DNA from: an uncultured Verrucomicrobiae bacterium
GTDB lineage: Bacteria > Verrucomicrobiota > Verrucomicrobiia > Limisphaerales > JAFGQR01
DNA: 64,000 bases
Reading direction: 5' to 3'
NCBI GenBank assembly: GCA_963788655.1
Contig: CAWBHS010000081.1
Location: 73,187-137,186 of the forward strand
Part shown: positions 6,652-24,632 of the stretch, piece by piece
How the letters are laid out: every line of letters starts with the position of its first letter
How positions within the stretch are numbered: the stretch's first letter is position 1
Notes under the pieces: model-generated
What the model saw: the letters and a program-made list of their open reading frames with translations, nothing else
Databases searched by the model: none
Told to the model about the DNA's origin: nothing
Translations under genes and position numbers: made by a program

Positions 6652-7064
6652 TGTAATCCATTACTAAAGCCTGTTCGAATGCCGCCATTTCGCAGACACA
6701 GCGTCAAGCGAGCAAGCGCGCATCCAATAACATGCCGATCCGACGACTAATCCGGTTACTTCCGCCATCGAACGATCCACCGGGCCTTGGATGGGCACAT
6801 GAGCCCGCTGGACCAATCCGAACCTGTTCCGATGCACATTTGCCTCGTCATTGCCGGCGAACGCACACCAATCCAGGGTTCTAACGTATGCGATGCTAAC
6901 AAGAATGGTGAACCACACAAATAAAAAACACACCTTATCCGTATTTTCACAGACAGTAATGTCCCATAGCAGGGGGGCAGGGAAATTTCGCTTGGTCTTG
7001 AGTCAGTTCACCAACGTGTGCCGGCACCCCATTGGTAAGCGTTGCGCACTCCAGTCCAAGGTCT

Positions 7065-7170
7065 GCACTGTCTCCCATCCGCAATCCTGCCGCAATCCAC
7101 TTCACCGTCATCGCCGTTTCCACGCGTAAACGCCCCGCGACCACAACTTCTCCGGTACGAACTCTGGGCA
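7065..7170 (-). mobile_element. Y1/RAYT-like transposase C-terminal remnant
   Basis: VVAGRLRVETAMTVKWIAAGLRMG resembles the recalled C-terminal LARRLRxETTMTLKWIAxRLxMG segment of these transposases. Confidence 0.55.
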
Positions 7171-16873: not shown

Positions 16874-18871
16874 TCACGTTCCCCCCGCGTCCCCGCCGGC
16901 AAAGGAAAGGGCCTCCTCCAGCCACGTGTCGGTGCGCAACACAGTCTTGCGTTGTTTGAAGGTGTGATGTTGGGAGTTGTGTTGCGCCAACACGAAGGCG
17001 GCTTGGGCAATTCTCCGGCGGCCGGGCACGCCGTTGCGAAGGCTGCGCCGCAAGGCATGTTGCAACGATCGCGGCAGGTAGCGGCGGATGAGTTCGTCCT
17101 CGGCGCTGACAAATGCTTGCGCGCTGCCGGGATCTCCCTGCCGGGCAGAACGACCAAAGAGCTGCCGGTCCACCCGCCCGGACTCGTGGCGTTCGGTGGA
17201 CAGCACGTGCAATCCGCCGTTGATCGCCACACCGGCGCCCAGTTTTATGTCCGTACCGCGTCCGGCCATGTTGGTGGCAATGGTGATGCATCCGGGTTCC
17301 CCGGCCAGGGCCACGATGGCGGCTTCTTCCTGATGGCGCACCGCGTTGAGCAAGCGGAACTCCAGCTTCCGCTCGTGGAGCAAGGTGGCGAGCTTTTCAC
17401 TGGCCGCCACACTGCGCGAGCCGACCAGGATTGGGCGACCGACGGTGTGCAGCCGTTCGATTTCCTCGACAATAGCCGTCCATTTGGAATCTTCATCCGC
17501 AAACACCCGGTCCGGCCAATGCTCGCGGATGCACGGCTTGTTGGTCGGGATGGCAACCACTGGGAGCTTGTAGATTTGCCAAAATTCCCCCGCCGCCTCG
17601 CGGGCCGTGCCCGACATGCCGGCCAAGCGATGAAAGCACCGGAAGAACCGTTGAAAGCTGAGCCGGGCGATGGTTTCGGAGGGATTGGAAATGGTCAATT
17701 CTTCCTTGGCTTCGATGGCCTGGTGTAAACCCTGACGCCAGGTGCGCTGGGGCATTTGCCGGCCGGTGAATTCATCGACGATGACGATCTTCTCGCTGTC
17801 CGCAATGATGTATTGCTTATCACGATGAAAGAATTCGCGCGCCACCAATGCCTGCCGGATTAATTCGTCCCGCCGGTCCCGGCCCTGCCAAAGCCCGGGC
17901 AACGACGCGCAAGCCGCCGCCACCTTTTCGCGCCCCGGCCGGGTCAATTCGATTTCCCGGTAACGTTGATTGAGCTGGTAGTCCGTTCCGGTTGCCAGGG
18001 AGTCCGCAATCTGTTGGGCGATGGTAACGGCTTGTTCGAGGTTCTCATTTTTCTGCGCCGCGGAGATGATGAGCGGCGTCACCGCTTCGTCCACCAATAC
18101 GCTGTCCGCTTCGTCCACAATGGCGGTATATAGGCCCCGCATCACCAAGCCGTCGCGCACCGCCAATTGCGGACGTAGCAACTGACGGATCAATCGGCGT
18201 GACGGATGATTCAGCGTGCCGAGCCGCAACCGGTCGCGCAGAAAGTCCGCCAGCAACTCTTTACTGGTCACGTACGTGATGTCCGCCGCGTAACCCTTCT
18301 GGCGGTCTGGCGGCTCCATCGCACCAGTAACGCAGCCTTCGCGAACGCCGCAAAAGGTGTAGAGCGGCCGCATCCATTTCGCGTCACGCTGAACGAGGTA
18401 ATCGTTCACCGTCACGATGTGGCAGGGGCGCCGGGTCCATCCCGCCAGCACCGCCGCCAGACTGGCCGTCAGCGTCTTGCCTTCGCCGGTGGCCATTTCC
18501 GCCAGGTAACCTCGGTGCAACGCCAACGCCCCCATCAGTTGCACGACGAACGGCCGCAATCCCAGGAGCCGCGCGGCCGCTTCCCGAACGGCCGCCAGCG
18601 CCGGCACGACGCAATCTTCAACATCTTTCCCGCCCCGACGGAATTGCGCGCGAAACTCCATGAGTTTCTCGTGCAATTGATGATTGGGCAGATCCTGCCA
18701 GTGGCCGGCATGCGCGTCGATGGTTTCGGCGAGGCGGCGCAGGTCCGTCAGAATGTGCGGGCGACGATGGTAATGTCCCGCCACGCTGTGGACCGCCGCG
18801 TCCAATCCCTTGAGCAAACGCGGCGGCGTGCGGTGACTAAAGCGGCGGAATTGCTGAGTGGGCGTGATCAC
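16874..18871 (-). CDS. Short accessory SecA-family ATPase
   Basis: EMATGEGKT, TVNDYL, VDEADSVLVDEA, DEFTGR, ATNMAGRGTDI, QLFGRSARQGDPG; ~665 aa, ends soon after the second RecA domain; GTG start 7 nt after M50 stop is inferred. Confidence 0.92.
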   Translation of the reverse strand: MITPTQQFRRFSHRTPPRLLKGLDAAVHSVAGHYHRRPHILTDLRRLAETIDAHAGHWQDLPNHQLHEKLMEFRAQFRRGGKDVEDCVVPALAAVREAAARLLGLRPFVVQLMGALALHRGYLAEMATGEGKTLTASLAAVLAGWTRRPCHIVTVNDYLVQRDAKWMRPLYTFCGVREGCVTGAMEPPDRQKGYAADITYVTSKELLADFLRDRLRLGTLNHPSRRLIRQLLRPQLAVRDGLVMRGLYTAIVDEADSVLVDEAVTPLIISAAQKNENLEQAVTIAQQIADSLATGTDYQLNQRYREIELTRPGREKVAAACASLPGLWQGRDRRDELIRQALVAREFFHRDKQYIIADSEKIVIVDEFTGRQMPQRTWRQGLHQAIEAKEELTISNPSETIARLSFQRFFRCFHRLAGMSGTAREAAGEFWQIYKLPVVAIPTNKPCIREHWPDRVFADEDSKWTAIVEEIERLHTVGRPILVGSRSVAASEKLATLLHERKLEFRLLNAVRHQEEAAIVALAGEPGCITIATNMAGRGTDIKLGAGVAINGGLHVLSTERHESGRVDRQLFGRSARQGDPGSAQAFVSAEDELIRRYLPRSLQHALRRSLRNGVPGRRRIAQAAFVLAQHNSQHHTFKQRKTVLRTDTWLEEALSFAGGDAGGT

Positions 18872-18878
18872 GCGGCGT

Positions 18879-21029
18879 TCACATTTGATACCGCTTTTGC
18901 AGAAGTTGGTACAGACGACGCATCCAGCGAGGCAGCAGCGGCTCGGGATCGAGATCAAAACGAATCTTGCCGGCGCGTCCATGGACATAGGCGACTTCCG
19001 GATCCGTCGGCAAATCGGCATGAACTTCAAAAAACGGCTCCGCCGCCTTCGACGGATCCTTCGGCGTGACGGCAACCTCGCCACCCGCGGCCCAGCCCAA
19101 TGCGGGCGAGGGTAATTGCTGTTTGCCGCCAGGAATGACTTCCCAACTTTTGGCGCGAATCATTTCTCCTGCCTGGCCGTACAACCGAATTTCCGCGCCA
19201 TGAATGTGCCGGGCAAAAATGGCATCGACATCCGCCTGTTCGACCGTAGCCGTGAACTCAAACGTGGCCGGTTCAACCAACAACCCCAGAGGCGTGCCAC
19301 GTTCCAACCGCCGTCCCAGGTAATCCTGAATGCCGGGCGCCACCCAGACGCCGGGCTGCCGAGCCCGAACTACCAAAGACGCGTGATCGGCTTTCAATTT
19401 GCGCAAACGCTGCGTCACGGTTTCCATCCGGCTTTGGAGCGGTTTCAGATTGGCGGTGGCCTCTTTCATGGCCTGACGGAGACGCGCTTCAATTTCCTGG
19501 TAACGTGCCTGCGCGTTGACCAAATCCAGTTCGAGCTCCGGATTGCTCAATTGCACGAGCGCATCATTCGGTCGCACGCGACTGCCTGGCTGGGCCAGCA
19601 CGGTTTGGACGGTGCCCGCGACCTCATTCAATACCAACGACCGATCATGCGCCTGAAGAATGCCCGGCGCACGGAAATGGCTGGGAAAGGGAATGACCGC
19701 CAGCAATACCAGGAGCGCTGCCGCCAGGCCCACCGTGGCAGCCACGGCCCGCGGACGGTTCCGATCGAGACGGGGACTGGACGCGAGGTAATGGATGAAC
19801 TTGCCAACCGGCACAATCACCCAGGAGATCAGACAGACGACCGCCATGATGATGCCCAGAATAAAAAAACGGTCGGCGACCAGCAGCAAGATGCCGCCGA
19901 AGACAATCACCCGATAAATCCCGCTGGCAATGCCGAAGACCACCAGCCAGACGGCCTCGCGGCGATTGTTCGCCGGGCTGTCCTCTTTCTTTAAACCAAA
20001 CAACCAGCGTTCGGCATAAAAGCGCAGTTGCCGCATGGCGCGCTGGGAGAGGTTCGGGATTTCGAGCAGGTCGGACAAAATGTAGTAACCATCAAACCGC
20101 AGCAACGGATTGACGTTGAACACGACCGTGGACACTGACGCGACAAACAACATGTTGTACGCCAGGCTGTGGATGGTGCCGGGCCCAGTGTTTGCCCAGA
20201 CAAAAACCGCCAGCGCGGCCACGAACAACTCGACGATCATGCCCGCGCATCCGACCAGGATGCGTTTCCAGCGGCTGCGGAAGGCCCAACTTGAAGTGGC
20301 ATCCACGTACGGCACCGGCGTGAAGATCATGAACAGGATGCCCATGGTGTGAACTTCGCCGCCGAACCGACGGCAGAAAAAGGCATGGCCGAACTCGTGC
20401 AGCGTCTTGATGATCACCAATCCCGCGTACAGCAGGAACAAGTTGTCCGGCGCCAGCACCGCCTGCGAATGTTCGCGCAGCGTGGAAAAATTGTCGGCTA
20501 CAACCTTCAATCCCCACCCGACCACCACCAGCCAGATCAAGGCGCCAATCGGATTGAGCAGCTTGCCCACCAGCGGCATTGCGCGCACCAGAAACCGGTC
20601 GGGATCCAGCAGCGGGATGCGCATGAACATGATGTTCATCAATCGCGCCGCAGTTTCGCGTTGTTTGCGTTTCTTGTACCGGTCGAACAATTGGGCGCTG
20701 TCAGCGGCCAGATCGTATTGCAGCAGGTTGGCGAAATACAATTGGGACAACAACTGGATTACGGCTTCCTGGCCGGGGGCTTCATCGGGGAACCGGTTGA
20801 GGCACTGCTGCCAGGCCTCCTGCACCGTGCAGTCCGGCCGCAAGCGCGCGACGAACTCGTACGCCGCGGGCCGGAGCCGGAAGAACTGGTTGCTGAAGGG
20901 ATTCTCCAGGACGATCCACCGATCCCCTCGATAATTTTGGCGCCGCACCTTGATGCCAGGGCGCAGGTGAATGCGCTGGTTGGCAATGCGGTACCACGAC
21001 TCACTAAAAGTTGGAAGACTTTCAGCCAT
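18879..21029 (-). CDS. PqqD-like / site-2 protease (M50) / HlyD-like membrane-fusion fusion protein
   Basis: LHEFGH and FNVNPLLRFDGY M50 motifs; N-terminal PqqD-like domain; C-terminal lipoyl/coiled-coil hairpin (VLAQPGSRV..LVQLSNPEL). Confidence 0.9.
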   Translation of the reverse strand: MAESLPTFSESWYRIANQRIHLRPGIKVRRQNYRGDRWIVLENPFSNQFFRLRPAAYEFVARLRPDCTVQEAWQQCLNRFPDEAPGQEAVIQLLSQLYFANLLQYDLAADSAQLFDRYKKRKQRETAARLMNIMFMRIPLLDPDRFLVRAMPLVGKLLNPIGALIWLVVVGWGLKVVADNFSTLREHSQAVLAPDNLFLLYAGLVIIKTLHEFGHAFFCRRFGGEVHTMGILFMIFTPVPYVDATSSWAFRSRWKRILVGCAGMIVELFVAALAVFVWANTGPGTIHSLAYNMLFVASVSTVVFNVNPLLRFDGYYILSDLLEIPNLSQRAMRQLRFYAERWLFGLKKEDSPANNRREAVWLVVFGIASGIYRVIVFGGILLLVADRFFILGIIMAVVCLISWVIVPVGKFIHYLASSPRLDRNRPRAVAATVGLAAALLVLLAVIPFPSHFRAPGILQAHDRSLVLNEVAGTVQTVLAQPGSRVRPNDALVQLSNPELELDLVNAQARYQEIEARLRQAMKEATANLKPLQSRMETVTQRLRKLKADHASLVVRARQPGVWVAPGIQDYLGRRLERGTPLGLLVEPATFEFTATVEQADVDAIFARHIHGAEIRLYGQAGEMIRAKSWEVIPGGKQQLPSPALGWAAGGEVAVTPKDPSKAAEPFFEVHADLPTDPEVAYVHGRAGKIRFDLDPEPLLPRWMRRLYQLLQKRYQM

Positions 21030-21137
21030 GCATTGTTCGAATGGACTTTAGGCTAATTGCGCCGCCGATGCAACCTTGCTGCTGCGCGGGCATTGGAAGA
21101 CCTCAAGAACTATGAGACTAGTACCGGAAGTAGCATT

Positions 21138-21273
21138 AACCACGGATTTCATGGATTTCACGGATACAAAACCTTGGACGCCCGAGGCGTCGCCAAGTTG
21201 CCTCACAATACAGGTGACCACTCTTCTTCAGGAAAGTTCTTCGCCATCTGTGTAATCCGGGCGATCCGTGGTT
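21138..21273. repeat. 9-nt-periodic inverted repeat (cacggattt type)
   Basis: aaccacggatttcatggatttcacggat ... atctgtgtaatccgggcgatccgtggtt. Confidence 0.8.
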
Positions 21274-21293
21274 CCAACTGCTTTGAGGTTCAA

Positions 21294-21575
21294 GTGGTGC
21301 GACGGCAGGGGTGCTGTGGGAAGAAGGCATTTTGAAAAATATTGCTCGCCGAGTTCGCTGACGGTTTGGGGGAAGGAGCATTATGGGGAAGAACGCCGGG
21401 CGAGTAAGTGGGAGCGAGTCGAGCGCACTGTGTCCGCCGAACCGCGCCGTTCGGGCTGCAAAAAGTTGCGCTTGGCGCAGACGCCGACGGAGCAGCGGGT
21501 GAAGGTATGGCTGGCGAATGGTGACCGGTCAGCCATCTCTAACTTGGCGTGTGCGCGAAAATTTTGGAAAAAGTG
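21294..21575 (+). mobile_element. Y1/RAYT-like transposase C-terminal remnant
   Basis: VRRQGCCGKKAF*, KEHYGEERRAS..ERTVSAEPRRSG, GDRSAISNL; aligns at DNA level with 23841-23976. Confidence 0.65.
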
Positions 21576-22010
21576 AGAACATACTCTTTCAAAAGAACCT
21601 TCCAATAACCGGGACCGCCCCCTTCACCTTTACGGTGGGATGTGCGCCGACGCGGCGGCAGACGGCCGGGAACCCGCTGTAAACTGGTCACAGGGAGGGG
21701 CTGCGTCGGTGCCCGGGGCCAACCGCCCGCCCAAAACCCAAACCCCAAAAAACACTGCTTGCCTCGCCGGCGTGCGCGCCTAAAATCCACAAAAATGAAC
21801 CTTTATGGAAAAGCAATTCTCCGTGAACCGCGGAGCGTCCAAAAAGCAAATTCCTATCAATTTAATGGAGCGAAGGAGGCAGAGTAGGGCCGGCGTCCCG
21901 CCGGCCTCAAACGGAGTTGCTCTCTTCCTGCACCCGGACATGCTGCGTTCCGATCGTGCCCACTCAGTCAACGCTGGGGGACGTCGGCCCTACTTTGAGG
22001 GAGTGACCGC

Positions 22011-23207
22011 ATGAGCCTCCATCTGCGACGCGTGGTGATTATTGCAGGCGCGGCGTTCGTGGCCGTCCTGGGACTGATCCTCGTGCTGGGCGGCAACGGG
22101 TCGGAAATCACTCTGGCCGACGGCACGCGCCTCCGCCTGGTCGGCGTGAGCGTGGGCACGAATGAGTTTACGACGGAGCGTCCGTGGTCCCGTGCGGCCC
22201 GGCAGATCCTGCCACGACGCTTTCAAGAACGGCTTCCACGATCCACCCATGGCGCCTGTTACTCGACGAATGGCATCGCCATCTGGCTGGAGGACTTGGC
22301 TCCCGGGTCCCGCACTAACGTGGTCCGCAAGTGGGGCTCGGTAGAAACTGTCAGCCGCAACGGAGACGTGCTCACGAGCCAAGACGCTCCGGGACACTAT
22401 AGCGGCGGCGGTCGATGCCAGCCGGTCTTCCTGTCGAAGTTTCCCCGTCGGCAGAAAAGTTTCCTGCTCCGGCTCTACGACCAGAAAGGCCAACTAGCCG
22501 GCGAACTAACGGTGGTAAATCCGTGCCGGGGACCATTCCCCCAATGGAAGGCGGAGACGCCGCCCGTGACCAAGACGAACGGCGATCTGACGGCGACATT
22601 CAAAGGGTGGAAGCGGCTGCTTGAGGAGAGTCCGCCAGGGCGGACCAACCAGAACTTGAAGGCCGATTTTGAGTTCAAATGGGCCGGCGCCCCCACGACC
22701 GAATGGGAGCTCGGCCCGTGTCGGCTCGATGATGCCACGGGCAATTCCGTTGGCGGGCTGTGTCCGGAACTCCCGCTCAGCGAGCCGGTCTGGAGATTGC
22801 ACGGCTGGTTCGAGCGGCGTCGTGAGGCGGTCTTCGCTCCAGACGAACATTTTGTCTTTACCAACCTGAACGTCTTGTCGGCCGGCTCCTTCACCAATCT
22901 CAACCTCGCCACGAATCTTCAAGGCGTGGGCCTGTGGATTCTCTGGTGGTCTGGTCCGGCCACGCTCACGCTCAGCAACGGTTTCCCCGTGCGCGCCGAG
23001 CCGACGCAAGGCACCAACGCCTACCGCCAGTTGTCGCTGAAATGGGCCAATGGAACTTGGCGAGAGGTCATCACCGTCGGACGGAGCACGCTGCTCATCG
23101 CACAGACGCCCGCTGGCCTGGACGTGCAAGTGGATTGTATGATGCGCGATTCGAACGGGCGCGCAACCGCCCCTTCCCCGGACGTGGAATCACCCCAGCT
23201 TTGTTGA
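22011..23207 (+). CDS. Hypothetical protein with N-terminal membrane anchor
   Basis: 398-aa ORF with hydrophobic N-terminus; no recognised domain. Confidence 0.7.
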   Translation: MSLHLRRVVIIAGAAFVAVLGLILVLGGNGSEITLADGTRLRLVGVSVGTNEFTTERPWSRAARQILPRRFQERLPRSTHGACYSTNGIAIWLEDLAPGSRTNVVRKWGSVETVSRNGDVLTSQDAPGHYSGGGRCQPVFLSKFPRRQKSFLLRLYDQKGQLAGELTVVNPCRGPFPQWKAETPPVTKTNGDLTATFKGWKRLLEESPPGRTNQNLKADFEFKWAGAPTTEWELGPCRLDDATGNSVGGLCPELPLSEPVWRLHGWFERRREAVFAPDEHFVFTNLNVLSAGSFTNLNLATNLQGVGLWILWWSGPATLTLSNGFPVRAEPTQGTNAYRQLSLKWANGTWREVITVGRSTLLIAQTPAGLDVQVDCMMRDSNGRATAPSPDVESPQLC

Positions 23208-23457
23208 TCCGGGTAAGGGCCAGCGACGGCAGTATTCGGTTCTTCAACCAGACGTTCCAGTTGGCGAGCAGAAACTGTCGGTGGAATTCCGTGTGCAACG
23301 ACGGCGGCTGATCGAGTTTTGCCTCGCGCCACCGCGTGCCGCGGAATGGATTGGAAACCGGCGCCAGCCATAGCGGGAGCCGCGTCTCTCTTCCCCCAAA
23401 GAGAGGGTCATCCATTAAAGGTTTCAACAGTAATCGCAACTCCAATCGCCTTTCTCC

Positions 23458-23955
23458 ATGGCCCGCAAGCTCCTACCAGCACGAACGCGCCATCTACCTT
23501 TTGATGAGCCGGGAGAGCGTGCGCGAGGCGATCCCCCATGAGGATCACGATCGAAAAGCGTTCATCCACCCGCCGAGCCAATGCTGTAAACGCAACCGCT
23601 GGCAGGTGCATACGCTGTGCCTAAAGTTGCGTATTGCGACAACAACTGGATCACGGCTTCCTGGCCGGGGGCTTCATCGGGGAACCGGTTGAGGCACTGC
23701 TGCCAGGCCTCCTGCACGGTGCAGTCCGGCCGCAAGCGCGCGACGAATTCGTAAGCCGCGGGCCGGAGCCGGAAGAACTGGTTGCTGAAGGGATTCTCCA
23801 GGACGATCCACCGTTCGCCCCGGTAATTCTGGCGCCGCACTGCACCGTTCGAACTGCGAAGAGTGCGCTCGGCGCAGATGCCGAAGGGGCACCGGGCGAA
23901 GGGGTGGTTGGCGATGGGTAACCGGTCAACCATCTCCAACTTGGTGTGTGAGTAA
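23458..23955 (+). mobile_element. Decayed Y1/RAYT-like transposase whose centre is replaced by an M50 gene fragment
   Basis: ATG MARKL, frameshift, AIYLLMSR..REAI..DHDRKAF..WQVHTLCL (N-terminus); after 23840 AQMPKGHRAK..MGNRSTISNLV* (C-terminus). Confidence 0.7.
23633..23840 (-). repeat. 208-bp diverged copy of 20741-20948 (M50 gene 5' region)
   Basis: Ungapped manual alignment, 10 mismatches, all at third codon positions. Confidence 0.95.
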
Positions 23956-24050
23956 GCAAAATGGAAAAAGTTTGAACTGACACTTTCACGCTACTGGAAA
24001 AACAGCCTCCCGAAAAGCAAGCCGCGAAATTATGCGCCATTCCGAACCGG

Positions 24051-24632
24051 TTACTGTTTGGTCACCGGGCCGCTGGTCGGGCTGGCGCTCAATTGGCGCA
24101 CGCCATCAAAGAAATAAATCAAGCCGGAAATTCCGGTGAATGCCGTAGCGCCGGCCGACCAGATCAATAACCATGGATCGGGCCATCTCAGCAACGCCCA
24201 CACCACGCAGACCATTTGCAGGACGGTGGCGACTTTACCCACCAGCACGGGCCGCACCTTCACTTTGCCGCACGTGTAGTGAATGACGGTCATCCCAATG
24301 AGCAACATAACATCGCGGCTGAGAATCATCGCCACCAGCCACAAGGGCAGCCGGGGCAAATAGGGCGTGTGGTCGAAGCTCAACAGGATAACGCCGGACA
24401 CGAGCAGGAGCTTGTCCGCCAACGGATCGAGAATGGCGCCGAGTTCGCTGCGCTGATTATACCGGCGCGCGATGAAGCCATCAATACCATCGCTCACGGA
24501 CGCCAGGAAGAACGCCCCCAGCGCCAGCCAACGATGATACGCGATCCCTTCCTGCACATAATAGATCACCTGGGTGATGAAGAACGGCACGAAGAGAATG
24601 CGAAAGATCGTTATCTTGTTGGCCGTGGTCAT
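24051..24632 (-). CDS. CDP-alcohol phosphatidyltransferase (PgsA-like)
   Basis: ANKITIFRI, SDGIDGFIARRYNQRSELGAILDPLADK. Confidence 0.93.
   Translation of the reverse strand: MTTANKITIFRILFVPFFITQVIYYVQEGIAYHRWLALGAFFLASVSDGIDGFIARRYNQRSELGAILDPLADKLLLVSGVILLSFDHTPYLPRLPLWLVAMILSRDVMLLIGMTVIHYTCGKVKVRPVLVGKVATVLQMVCVVWALLRWPDPWLLIWSAGATAFTGISGLIYFFDGVRQLSASPTSGPVTKQ

Follow-up and report, generated by a model that had tools for sequence, protein, structure and literature searches.

Anatomy of the locus

The stretch of DNA examined here (the window, 64,000 nucleotides) covers positions 73,187 to 137,186 of contig CAWBHS010000081.1 in assembly GCA_963788655.1, from an uncultured Verrucomicrobiae bacterium. 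Positions are those of the window unless a contig is named. The assembly is a metagenome-assembled genome of 115 contigs and 8.96 Mb, with 86% completeness and 5.6% contamination; the names attached to its protein matches indicate Verrucomicrobiota of soil. Within the window, a fragment of an M50 metalloprotease gene lies inside the relic of a Y1 transposase gene of RAYT-like type. The relic is termed B, the fragment within it F', the matching segment of the M50 gene F, and a sister transposase relic A (Table 1); F and F' lie on the same 137-kb contig (C81).

F' and F can be aligned without gaps, with 198 of 208 positions identical, and the identity drops off beyond both ends, where flanking 10-mers match at 0–3 of 10 positions on the left and 2–7 of 10 on the right. 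In the reading frame of the M50 gene, F' corresponds to codons 28–96. All ten differences fall at third codon positions: nine are synonymous, and the tenth, at codon 36, is GAT (D) in the M50 gene and GAA (E) in F'. F and F' are 2892 bp apart in direct orientation and are the only two copies of the segment; no third copy was found in the assembly. On both sides of F', the transposase remnants run antisense to it. A first-pass annotation of this DNA had described exactly such an ungapped match to the M50 gene, lying antisense within a transposase, with the same ten third-position differences, and this description is borne out. Judging from its sequence, locus B is a single dead, internally deleted RAYT-like unit whose middle is replaced by the M50 fragment in antisense. 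This anatomy is held with higher confidence than the full explanation of its origin given below.

Table 1. Features at and around locus B, with positions in the window.
Feature	Position	Strand	Evidence or remark
N-terminal RAYT-like Y1 transposase remnant, ~residues 1–56 of 307	23458..23626	+	DNA identity 77% to C100:30466-30663 and 75% to C62:3033-3207; BLASTP; tblastn
Left junction, ~6 nt assignable neither to the transposase family nor to the M50 gene	23627..23632		alignments
F', M50 codons 28–96, nearly the whole PqqD/RRE-like N-terminal domain	23633..23840	-	198/208, ungapped
Right-junction microhomology CGCCGCAC	23833..23840		overlapping BLAST segments; alignment
C-terminal transposase remnant (~residues 260–307, decayed helix-turn-helix) and 3' element end	23841..23988	+	77% to A
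Stop-equivalent of the C-terminal remnant	23953-23955	+	
Degenerate right inverted repeat of B	~23962-23983		15/22 to family repeat, shuffle P 0.0145
ORF125	23562..23939	-	open frame through F' and both junctions
F, source-like segment, codons 28–96 of the working M50 gene	20741..20948	-	alignment with F'
M50 metalloprotease gene, 716 aa	18879..21029	-	Pfam, NCBIfam
SecA-like gene, after the M50 gene	16874..19084		NCBIfam SecA 609 bits, below cut-off 814
Sister remnant A, last ~100 codons (~residues 200–307) and degenerate right inverted repeat	21283..21591	+	tblastn, tree
MITE-like repeat (miniature inverted-repeat transposable element) with 28-nt terminal inverted repeats	21123..21282		between the M50 start and A
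ORF398, 398 aa, no family match	22011..23207	+	between remnants A and B

The transposase remnants and their family

Scans of the flanks' own frames against Pfam and NCBIfam gave no family match, and a genome scan with PF01797 (Y1_Tnp) did not pick up B. The left remnant has a frameshift after approximately codon 6 and two in-frame stops. Its second frame matches an intact 307-aa copy in the same genome (BLASTP, 25/75 identities, E 1e-11, residues 8–56), and a tblastn search of the left flank across the genome gave E 3.9e-6. That intact copy scores 51.3 bits on Y1_Tnp (cut-off 23), and the C100 copy, to which the left flank is 77% identical in DNA sequence, scores 26.1 bits. The flanks are thus assigned to the Y1 family indirectly, because they are homologous to copies in the genome that pass the Y1_Tnp cut-off. 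In this way the earlier view of the flanks as Y1 (IS200-like/RAYT-like) transposase remnants holds, although the profile check proposed along with it gave no match when applied to the flanks directly and succeeded only through the intact and C100 copies.

Homology of the left flank stops at reference residue 56, immediately before the HFH (HUH) motif. Over 157 nt, the right flank (23833–23988) shares 77% identity with A (21435–21591); its identity to the 3' ends of the C87 and C100 copies is 76% and 75%. Its decayed helix-turn-helix (HTH)-like tail, approximately residues 260–307, corresponds to the C-terminal tail of the intact copies, which has no family match in Pfam or NCBIfam. Residues ~57–259, including the HUH motif and the catalytic tyrosine region, are absent from B and replaced by F', which leaves a remnant incapable of activity. 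On C22 and C2, intact copies have 22–23-nt inverted repeats on both sides that are 91% complementary. At B the right inverted repeat is recognizable (Table 1), and the left one is not demonstrable (shuffle P 0.69).

Comparison with RAYTs (Nunvar et al. 2010, PMC2817692) reveals both likenesses and differences. Intact members of the family score best on the NCBIfam model REP_Tyr_transpos (NF047646; the IS200 score is 20.4 bits), are bracketed by the two inverted 22–23-nt repeats, and carry an NPVRA(G/K) stretch similar to the RAYT motif NP(L/V)(R/K)xG. In contrast to RAYTs, the best score is below the cut-off (48.9 against 80 bits), the genome holds several gene copies and many fragments, among which pieces of the N- and C-terminal ends are the most frequent, and the flanking repeat has only 15 occurrences genome-wide (at most 4 mismatches), unlike a high-copy repetitive extragenic palindromic sequence. 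The family protein, of ~307 aa, also has the extra C-terminal HTH-like tail.

Another internally deleted member of the family, a mini-copy at C100:30257-30682, has residues 1–74 fused directly to residues ~260–307, with both inverted repeats and no filler, and its C-side breakpoint lies within ~10 nt of that of B. An ancestral deletion shared by this mini-copy and B was considered and set aside: the sister relic A keeps residues 200–259, so the deletion in B is its own. At C87:149375-149491, a 3' fragment of the transposase (76% identical to the right flank of B) stands in one open frame with the apparent end of another protein, which by eye is taken to be of the AraC-type HTH kind.

Substitution pattern and relative age of the fragment

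The probability that all ten differences between F and F' fall at third codon positions was estimated by simulation as 2e-5 if both copies are neutral, and as 3.6e-4 if F' is neutral while changes in the gene were limited to synonymous ones. Neutral decay of a local duplicate is therefore rejected. The synonymous divergence (dS) is 0.22 (pS 0.19 +/- 0.06), the nonsynonymous divergence (dN) 0.006, and their ratio (omega) 0.03. F' shows no change at its 138 first and second codon positions, which corresponds to a neutral age of at most ~0.02, whereas the right flank of B differs from A by p = 0.23 (Jukes–Cantor distance 0.27). F' thus looks much younger than the decayed flanks that enclose it, as the first-pass annotation had proposed.

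The direction of change was assessed with 89 outgroup sequences, which have 66–85% protein identity and are partly saturated, and with a nearer one (G066) found among 400 genomes of the order. F' was the closer copy for 74 of the 89 and F for 9, with 6 tied. G066 is 88% identical to F' and 85.5% to F; at the ten differing sites it agrees with F' at six, with F at one, and with neither at three. At these three, the state of the M50 gene occurs in 0–1 of the 89 more distant outgroups. At the D/E site, E is present, as in F', in all 15 other protein matches that were inspected, and nine translated outgroups have E (seven) or Q (two). A ratio of 9:1 toward change on the gene gives P = 0.021, although only with the three sites polarized by how often each state occurs among the distant and partly saturated outgroups. 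These comparisons suggest that change at the ten sites occurred mostly on the working M50 gene, and that F' is the conservative copy. If a neutral F' had been present while the gene took nine synonymous changes, it should show dozens of changes of its own. No more than one or two are seen, and the simplest account is that it is a recent copy.

The differences are also unevenly distributed, with five of the ten within codons 31–36 (scan P 0.005, max-chi2 P 0.013), a clustering as expected of recombination. In the M50 gene, codons 31–36 include unusual A/T-ending codons. Mutagenic synthesis near the junction was also considered as the source of the five clustered differences and was rejected, since all are at third positions and are assigned by the outgroups to the gene and not to F'. 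Overall, three readings of the all-third-position pattern survive: F' may be under selection, it may be a young copy of an allele now absent from the working gene, or it may be constrained at the nucleotide level.

A local repair scar as the favored explanation

The second of these readings is favored here. The middle of a dead RAYT-like Y1 gene (~residues 57–259) would have been replaced by a 208-bp copy of M50 codons 28–96, taken from 2.9 kb away, either by a replication or repair template switch that copied nearby DNA into a break or by a short duplication and a subsequent deletion. The transposase itself would not have been involved. A local origin is indicated because there are only two copies, 2892 bp apart, and because the right junction has microhomology. 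The sequence CGCCGCAC is present at both 20941–20948 and 23833–23840, and CGCCGAAC at the homologous positions 21435–21442 of A, a 7/8 match over 8 nt at which the junction may have formed; the first-pass annotation had noticed this correctly. No clear microhomology was seen in alignments of the ~6 nt at the left junction, so that of the two signs of a templated insertion, a nearby template is present and junction microhomology is found on the right side alone. Later, recombination with a functional but diverged allele would have changed the 5' region of the M50 gene, with its clearest trace at codons 31–36, unless the template was already such a diverged allele.

On this account, F' looks pristine because it is young, and the ten synonymous-type differences are there because the allele from which it was copied is no longer present in the working M50 gene. 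Most probably the patch is a scar without function. The account as a whole, namely that an earlier M50 allele is preserved in a dead RAYT-like gene by a local scar of microhomology-mediated repair or of duplication and deletion, is given roughly an even chance of being right; its repair mechanism, its lack of function and its recombination step are each deduced from the scar and the substitution pattern. Part of the first-pass annotation's own proposal, that F' came from a functional allele and not from a local duplication that then decayed neutrally, agrees with this, in that neutral decay is rejected and the change lies on the gene side. The donor was not found: searches of the genome and of 400 genomes of the order for the segment returned no donor allele. 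Similarly, its suggestion of "Campbell-type allele replacement" fits as regards another allele, but "Campbell-type" is a misnomer, as there is no sign of the integration of a circle. The possibility that B is the relic of a second, tandem M50 paralogue was discarded, as it cannot explain the ordered N- and C-terminal bracketing by one transposase.

The proposed event is a new instance of an already known kind. As in filler insertions attributed to microhomology-mediated end joining (MMEJ) or to fork stalling and template switching/microhomology-mediated break-induced replication (FoSTeS/MMBIR), a short copy from a few kilobases away fills an internal deletion, with an 8-nt microhomology (7/8) at one junction and a few bases of no assignable origin at the other. 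It differs in that the mechanism is deduced from the scar only, and duplication plus deletion would leave an identical scar. Such templated insertions are described mostly in eukaryotes, although there is a preprint on bacterial MMEJ (10.1101/2022.03.14.484287).

Several observations weigh against the favored account. The 6:1 ratio obtained with G066 is in the expected direction but weak (two-sided P 0.125). A degenerate 34-mer spanning the five clustered sites had no match in metagenome contigs, the nearest sequence found to F' in the 400 genomes is the 88% identical one of G066, and a search of the genome for a source of the patch at codons 31–36 of the M50 gene returned chance short matches only. 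No read or contig bridges a junction among the seven pieces of 151–165 nt that were recovered on the locus from three soil DNA runs with small shares (0.06–0.07); the piece at 23832–23982 reaches only 9 nt to the left of the right junction. Finally, four features are compatible with a single old duplication after which both copies were under selection: the dS of 0.22 between F and F' is close to the neutral divergence of 0.27 between the sister tails; in a tree, these C-terminal tails of A and B are mutual closest relatives (support 100/100, shared stem 0.44), and they are collinear with F and F'; an open frame, ORF125, runs across both junctions; and F' spans almost exactly a folded domain.

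Alternative explanations

The last four observations also fit the view of ORF125 as a real gene, a standalone PqqD/RRE-like gene derived from partial duplication of the M50 gene, with its start and tail supplied by the antisense strand of the transposase. ORF125 consists of 34 codons antisense to the transposase C-terminus, the 69 of F', and a tail of 22 that lies antisense to the N-terminus. An old duplication that also copied the neighboring transposase tail would have been followed by purifying selection, and the product would share the peptide substrate of the M50 N-terminal domain, either assisting that domain or competing with it. The low omega is as expected under this view. A public gene caller reports ORF125 as a 123-aa protein (a singleton, found on this contig only), and ORF125 begins 110 nt downstream of a CDP-alcohol phosphatidyltransferase gene on the same strand, with no terminator-like site between them. 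An AlphaFold2 (AF2) model built on an alignment of 62 relatives has a complete core of three strands and three helices (E32-37, E40-46, E53-56, H58-66, H73-83, H91-104) with pLDDT values of 77–87. Its best compact Foldseek matches are leader-binding proteins of ribosomally synthesized and post-translationally modified peptides (5v1u, 6jx3 and 5why; prob 0.6–0.77, E >0.1), and no match to the PDB was obtained at E <= 0.001. In this model, the F' part resembles the winged-helix fold of standalone RRE/PqqD-like proteins such as lasso-peptide B1 (5v1u, 6jx3), from which ORF125 differs in its non-significant fold match (E 0.2–0.5), a PqqD score of 13.7 bits that is below the Pfam cut-off of 23.4, its singleton status, and two tails that AF2 predicts to be disordered. 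These tails are present in none of the 15 other matches that were inspected among the 89 found by protein search, all 15 of which are ordinary or broken M50 N-termini. ORF125 also lacks near-invariant segments that border the domain in the alignment of 62 relatives (TFSESWYR ahead of it and, at the end of helix 3, L-Y-x-x-N-L-L), and its GGAG abuts the ATG without a spacer. Equal-rate selection on both copies predicts symmetrical synonymous change without clustering, whereas the observed change leans to the M50 side by 6:1 to 9:1 and is concentrated in codons 31–36. The gene reading is therefore disfavored and is considered unlikely; if a selected mini-protein or RNA were nonetheless made, the locus would illustrate the birth of a gene out of a partial duplication and antisense transposase sequence. 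An antisense regulator, in which an old transposase promoter would drive an RNA complementary to M50 codons 28–96 and F' would be constrained for pairing, is the least probable of the alternatives. Complementarity of 95% over 208 nt would permit pairing, and nucleotide-level constraint on F' would lead to the pattern seen, a frozen F' beside a gene with synonymous change only. Selection for pairing should, however, also restrain the synonymous sites of the gene, five of which have changed within 16 nt. Moreover, no sigma-70-like promoter was detected on either strand of 23100–24200, the TTGACA that is conserved upstream of family members is degraded at B, and there was no Rfam match at E <= 1 within 20600–24200. 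The sole terminator-like site found is inside the phosphatidyltransferase gene.

The first-pass annotation had suggested, as one of two options, a Pack/Helitron-like capture, in which an HUH element would take up a host fragment while replicating as a single strand or transposing, and would hold it as a passenger between its ends. F' does lie within a unit that has a recognizable right inverted repeat, intact members, which are bounded by such repeats, might in principle mobilize a passenger in trans, and N- and C-terminal remnants are common in this family, as with non-autonomous derivatives. Yet this capture is not supported: the one copy sits 2.9 kb from its source without sign of mobilization, and the HUH/tyrosine region is deleted. 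No second near-identical copy exists in 93 segment-bearing genomes (of the 400 other genomes of the order searched), and no such unit was seen in 80 metagenome loci or in the protein matches inspected for tails. The left inverted repeat is not demonstrable, and the suggested survey of other RAYT remnants for embedded host DNA found two further internally deleted copies, on C100 and C35, neither of which has filler between its ends. The family has a Y1 domain only, and Pfam and NCBIfam scans of intact members turned up no Helitron-type Rep-helicase. Capture by a mobile element in this sense is thus very unlikely. In plants, Pack-MULE and Helitron capture (PMC3288121) likewise places a host gene fragment inside the relic of a non-autonomous element, here of an HUH-type family; it differs from the present case in that the single copy here lies beside its source, shows no evidence of having moved, and belongs to a Y1 family without a helicase match whose catalytic part is deleted. 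A full-text search, as far as its coverage extends, returned no report of host-fragment capture by prokaryotic Y1/RAYT elements. A functional variant, a bacterial Pack-type counterpart in which an inverted-repeat-bounded, non-autonomous RAYT-like unit would hold a host fragment whose product (the 125-aa standalone RRE-like mini-protein or a plus-strand antisense RNA) modulates the M50-SecA pair for peptide processing and export, would explain why F' is unchanged while its flanks have decayed, but it is quite improbable. An assembly product, either a contig that is chimeric at the junctions or one that combines the M50 gene and the scar from two strains, is also very improbable. The contamination of the metagenome bin, the lack of a bridging read, and a 5% difference that is synonymous only, resembling the alleles of two strains, would all be compatible with it. 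Against this, both loci are on one 137-kb contig, and run X2 holds one piece that matches F over 20757–20921 and another that matches 23832–23982, each with zero differences. A chimera in particular is unlikely because the junction overlaps comprise few bases (8 nt on the right, no more than a few on the left, presumably far below the assembly word length) and because F' differs at 10 sites from the contig's own gene, of which it is therefore not a mis-joined copy.

As a scar, the locus would have no wider consequence. It would offer a clear case from prokaryotes in which part of a gene has been copied into a dead mobile element, and F' may serve as an internal fossil of an earlier or other M50 allele, which would indicate recombination without recourse to a second genome.

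The M50 gene and its surroundings

The M50 protein has a weak PqqD/RRE-like N-terminus, an M50 metalloprotease core, and an HlyD-like C-terminal adaptor. It scores 36.2 bits on Pfam Peptidase_M50, 18.1 bits on PqqD (PF05402), which like the ORF125 score is below the cut-off, and 178 bits on NCBIfam daptide_HExxH, below the cut-off of 300. A few homologues bear a precomputed PF05402 label.

In metagenome loci with at least 900 nt upstream of the M50 gene, a GAF-HlyD gene ends no more than 300 nt from the M50 start in 63 of 70 cases, and none of 80 metagenome M50 loci has a transposase match within 1.5 kb. In the genome studied here, the GAF-HlyD orthologue is on another contig (C60:328147-329619; 68% identity over 491 aa), with no M50 remnant detected downstream of it by blastn or tblastn, and its position upstream of the M50 gene is taken by transposase remnants and a MITE-like repeat. 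Since the usual partner is displaced and element debris stands in its place, the region upstream of the M50 gene is a site of rearrangement, and from gene order the M50 operon is read as split at this point, just upstream of the M50 gene. The locus would thus mark the break, by mobile-element activity, of a GAF-HlyD/M50-HlyD/SecA-like operon that is widely conserved in Verrucomicrobiota.

Remnant A was identified by tblastn against its region alone (E 1.6e-5 and 2.4e-4), and its right inverted repeat matches the family repeat at 15/22 positions (shuffle P 0.0085). On its left, A is bordered by the MITE-like repeat (~160 nt), whose terminal inverted repeats are 79% complementary; copies of 33–160 nt with 71–91% identity are present on seven other contigs of the genome. 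The predicted product of ORF398 has an N-terminal hydrophobic stretch; the gene is single-copy in the genome and has no family in Pfam or NCBIfam. Its position between the direct-oriented sister remnants A and B gives a layout resembling that of a composite transposon.

Some further observations were made in and around the window. A weak match to the C-terminal HTH-like tail of the transposase, at ~7055–7144 on the minus strand (C81:80241-80330; 43% over 30 aa, E 0.039), is possibly another transposase relic. The sequence at 21782–21867, with its core at 21824–21859, has no Rfam match; it has six further copies in this genome and is repeated at 85–97% identity, often several times per genome, across families of the order. 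Lastly, one relative (G004; L019 1999-2400) has an open reading frame of 134 aa between its GAF-HlyD and M50 genes, which is presumed to encode a four-helix bundle of the "23S rRNA intervening sequence" type.

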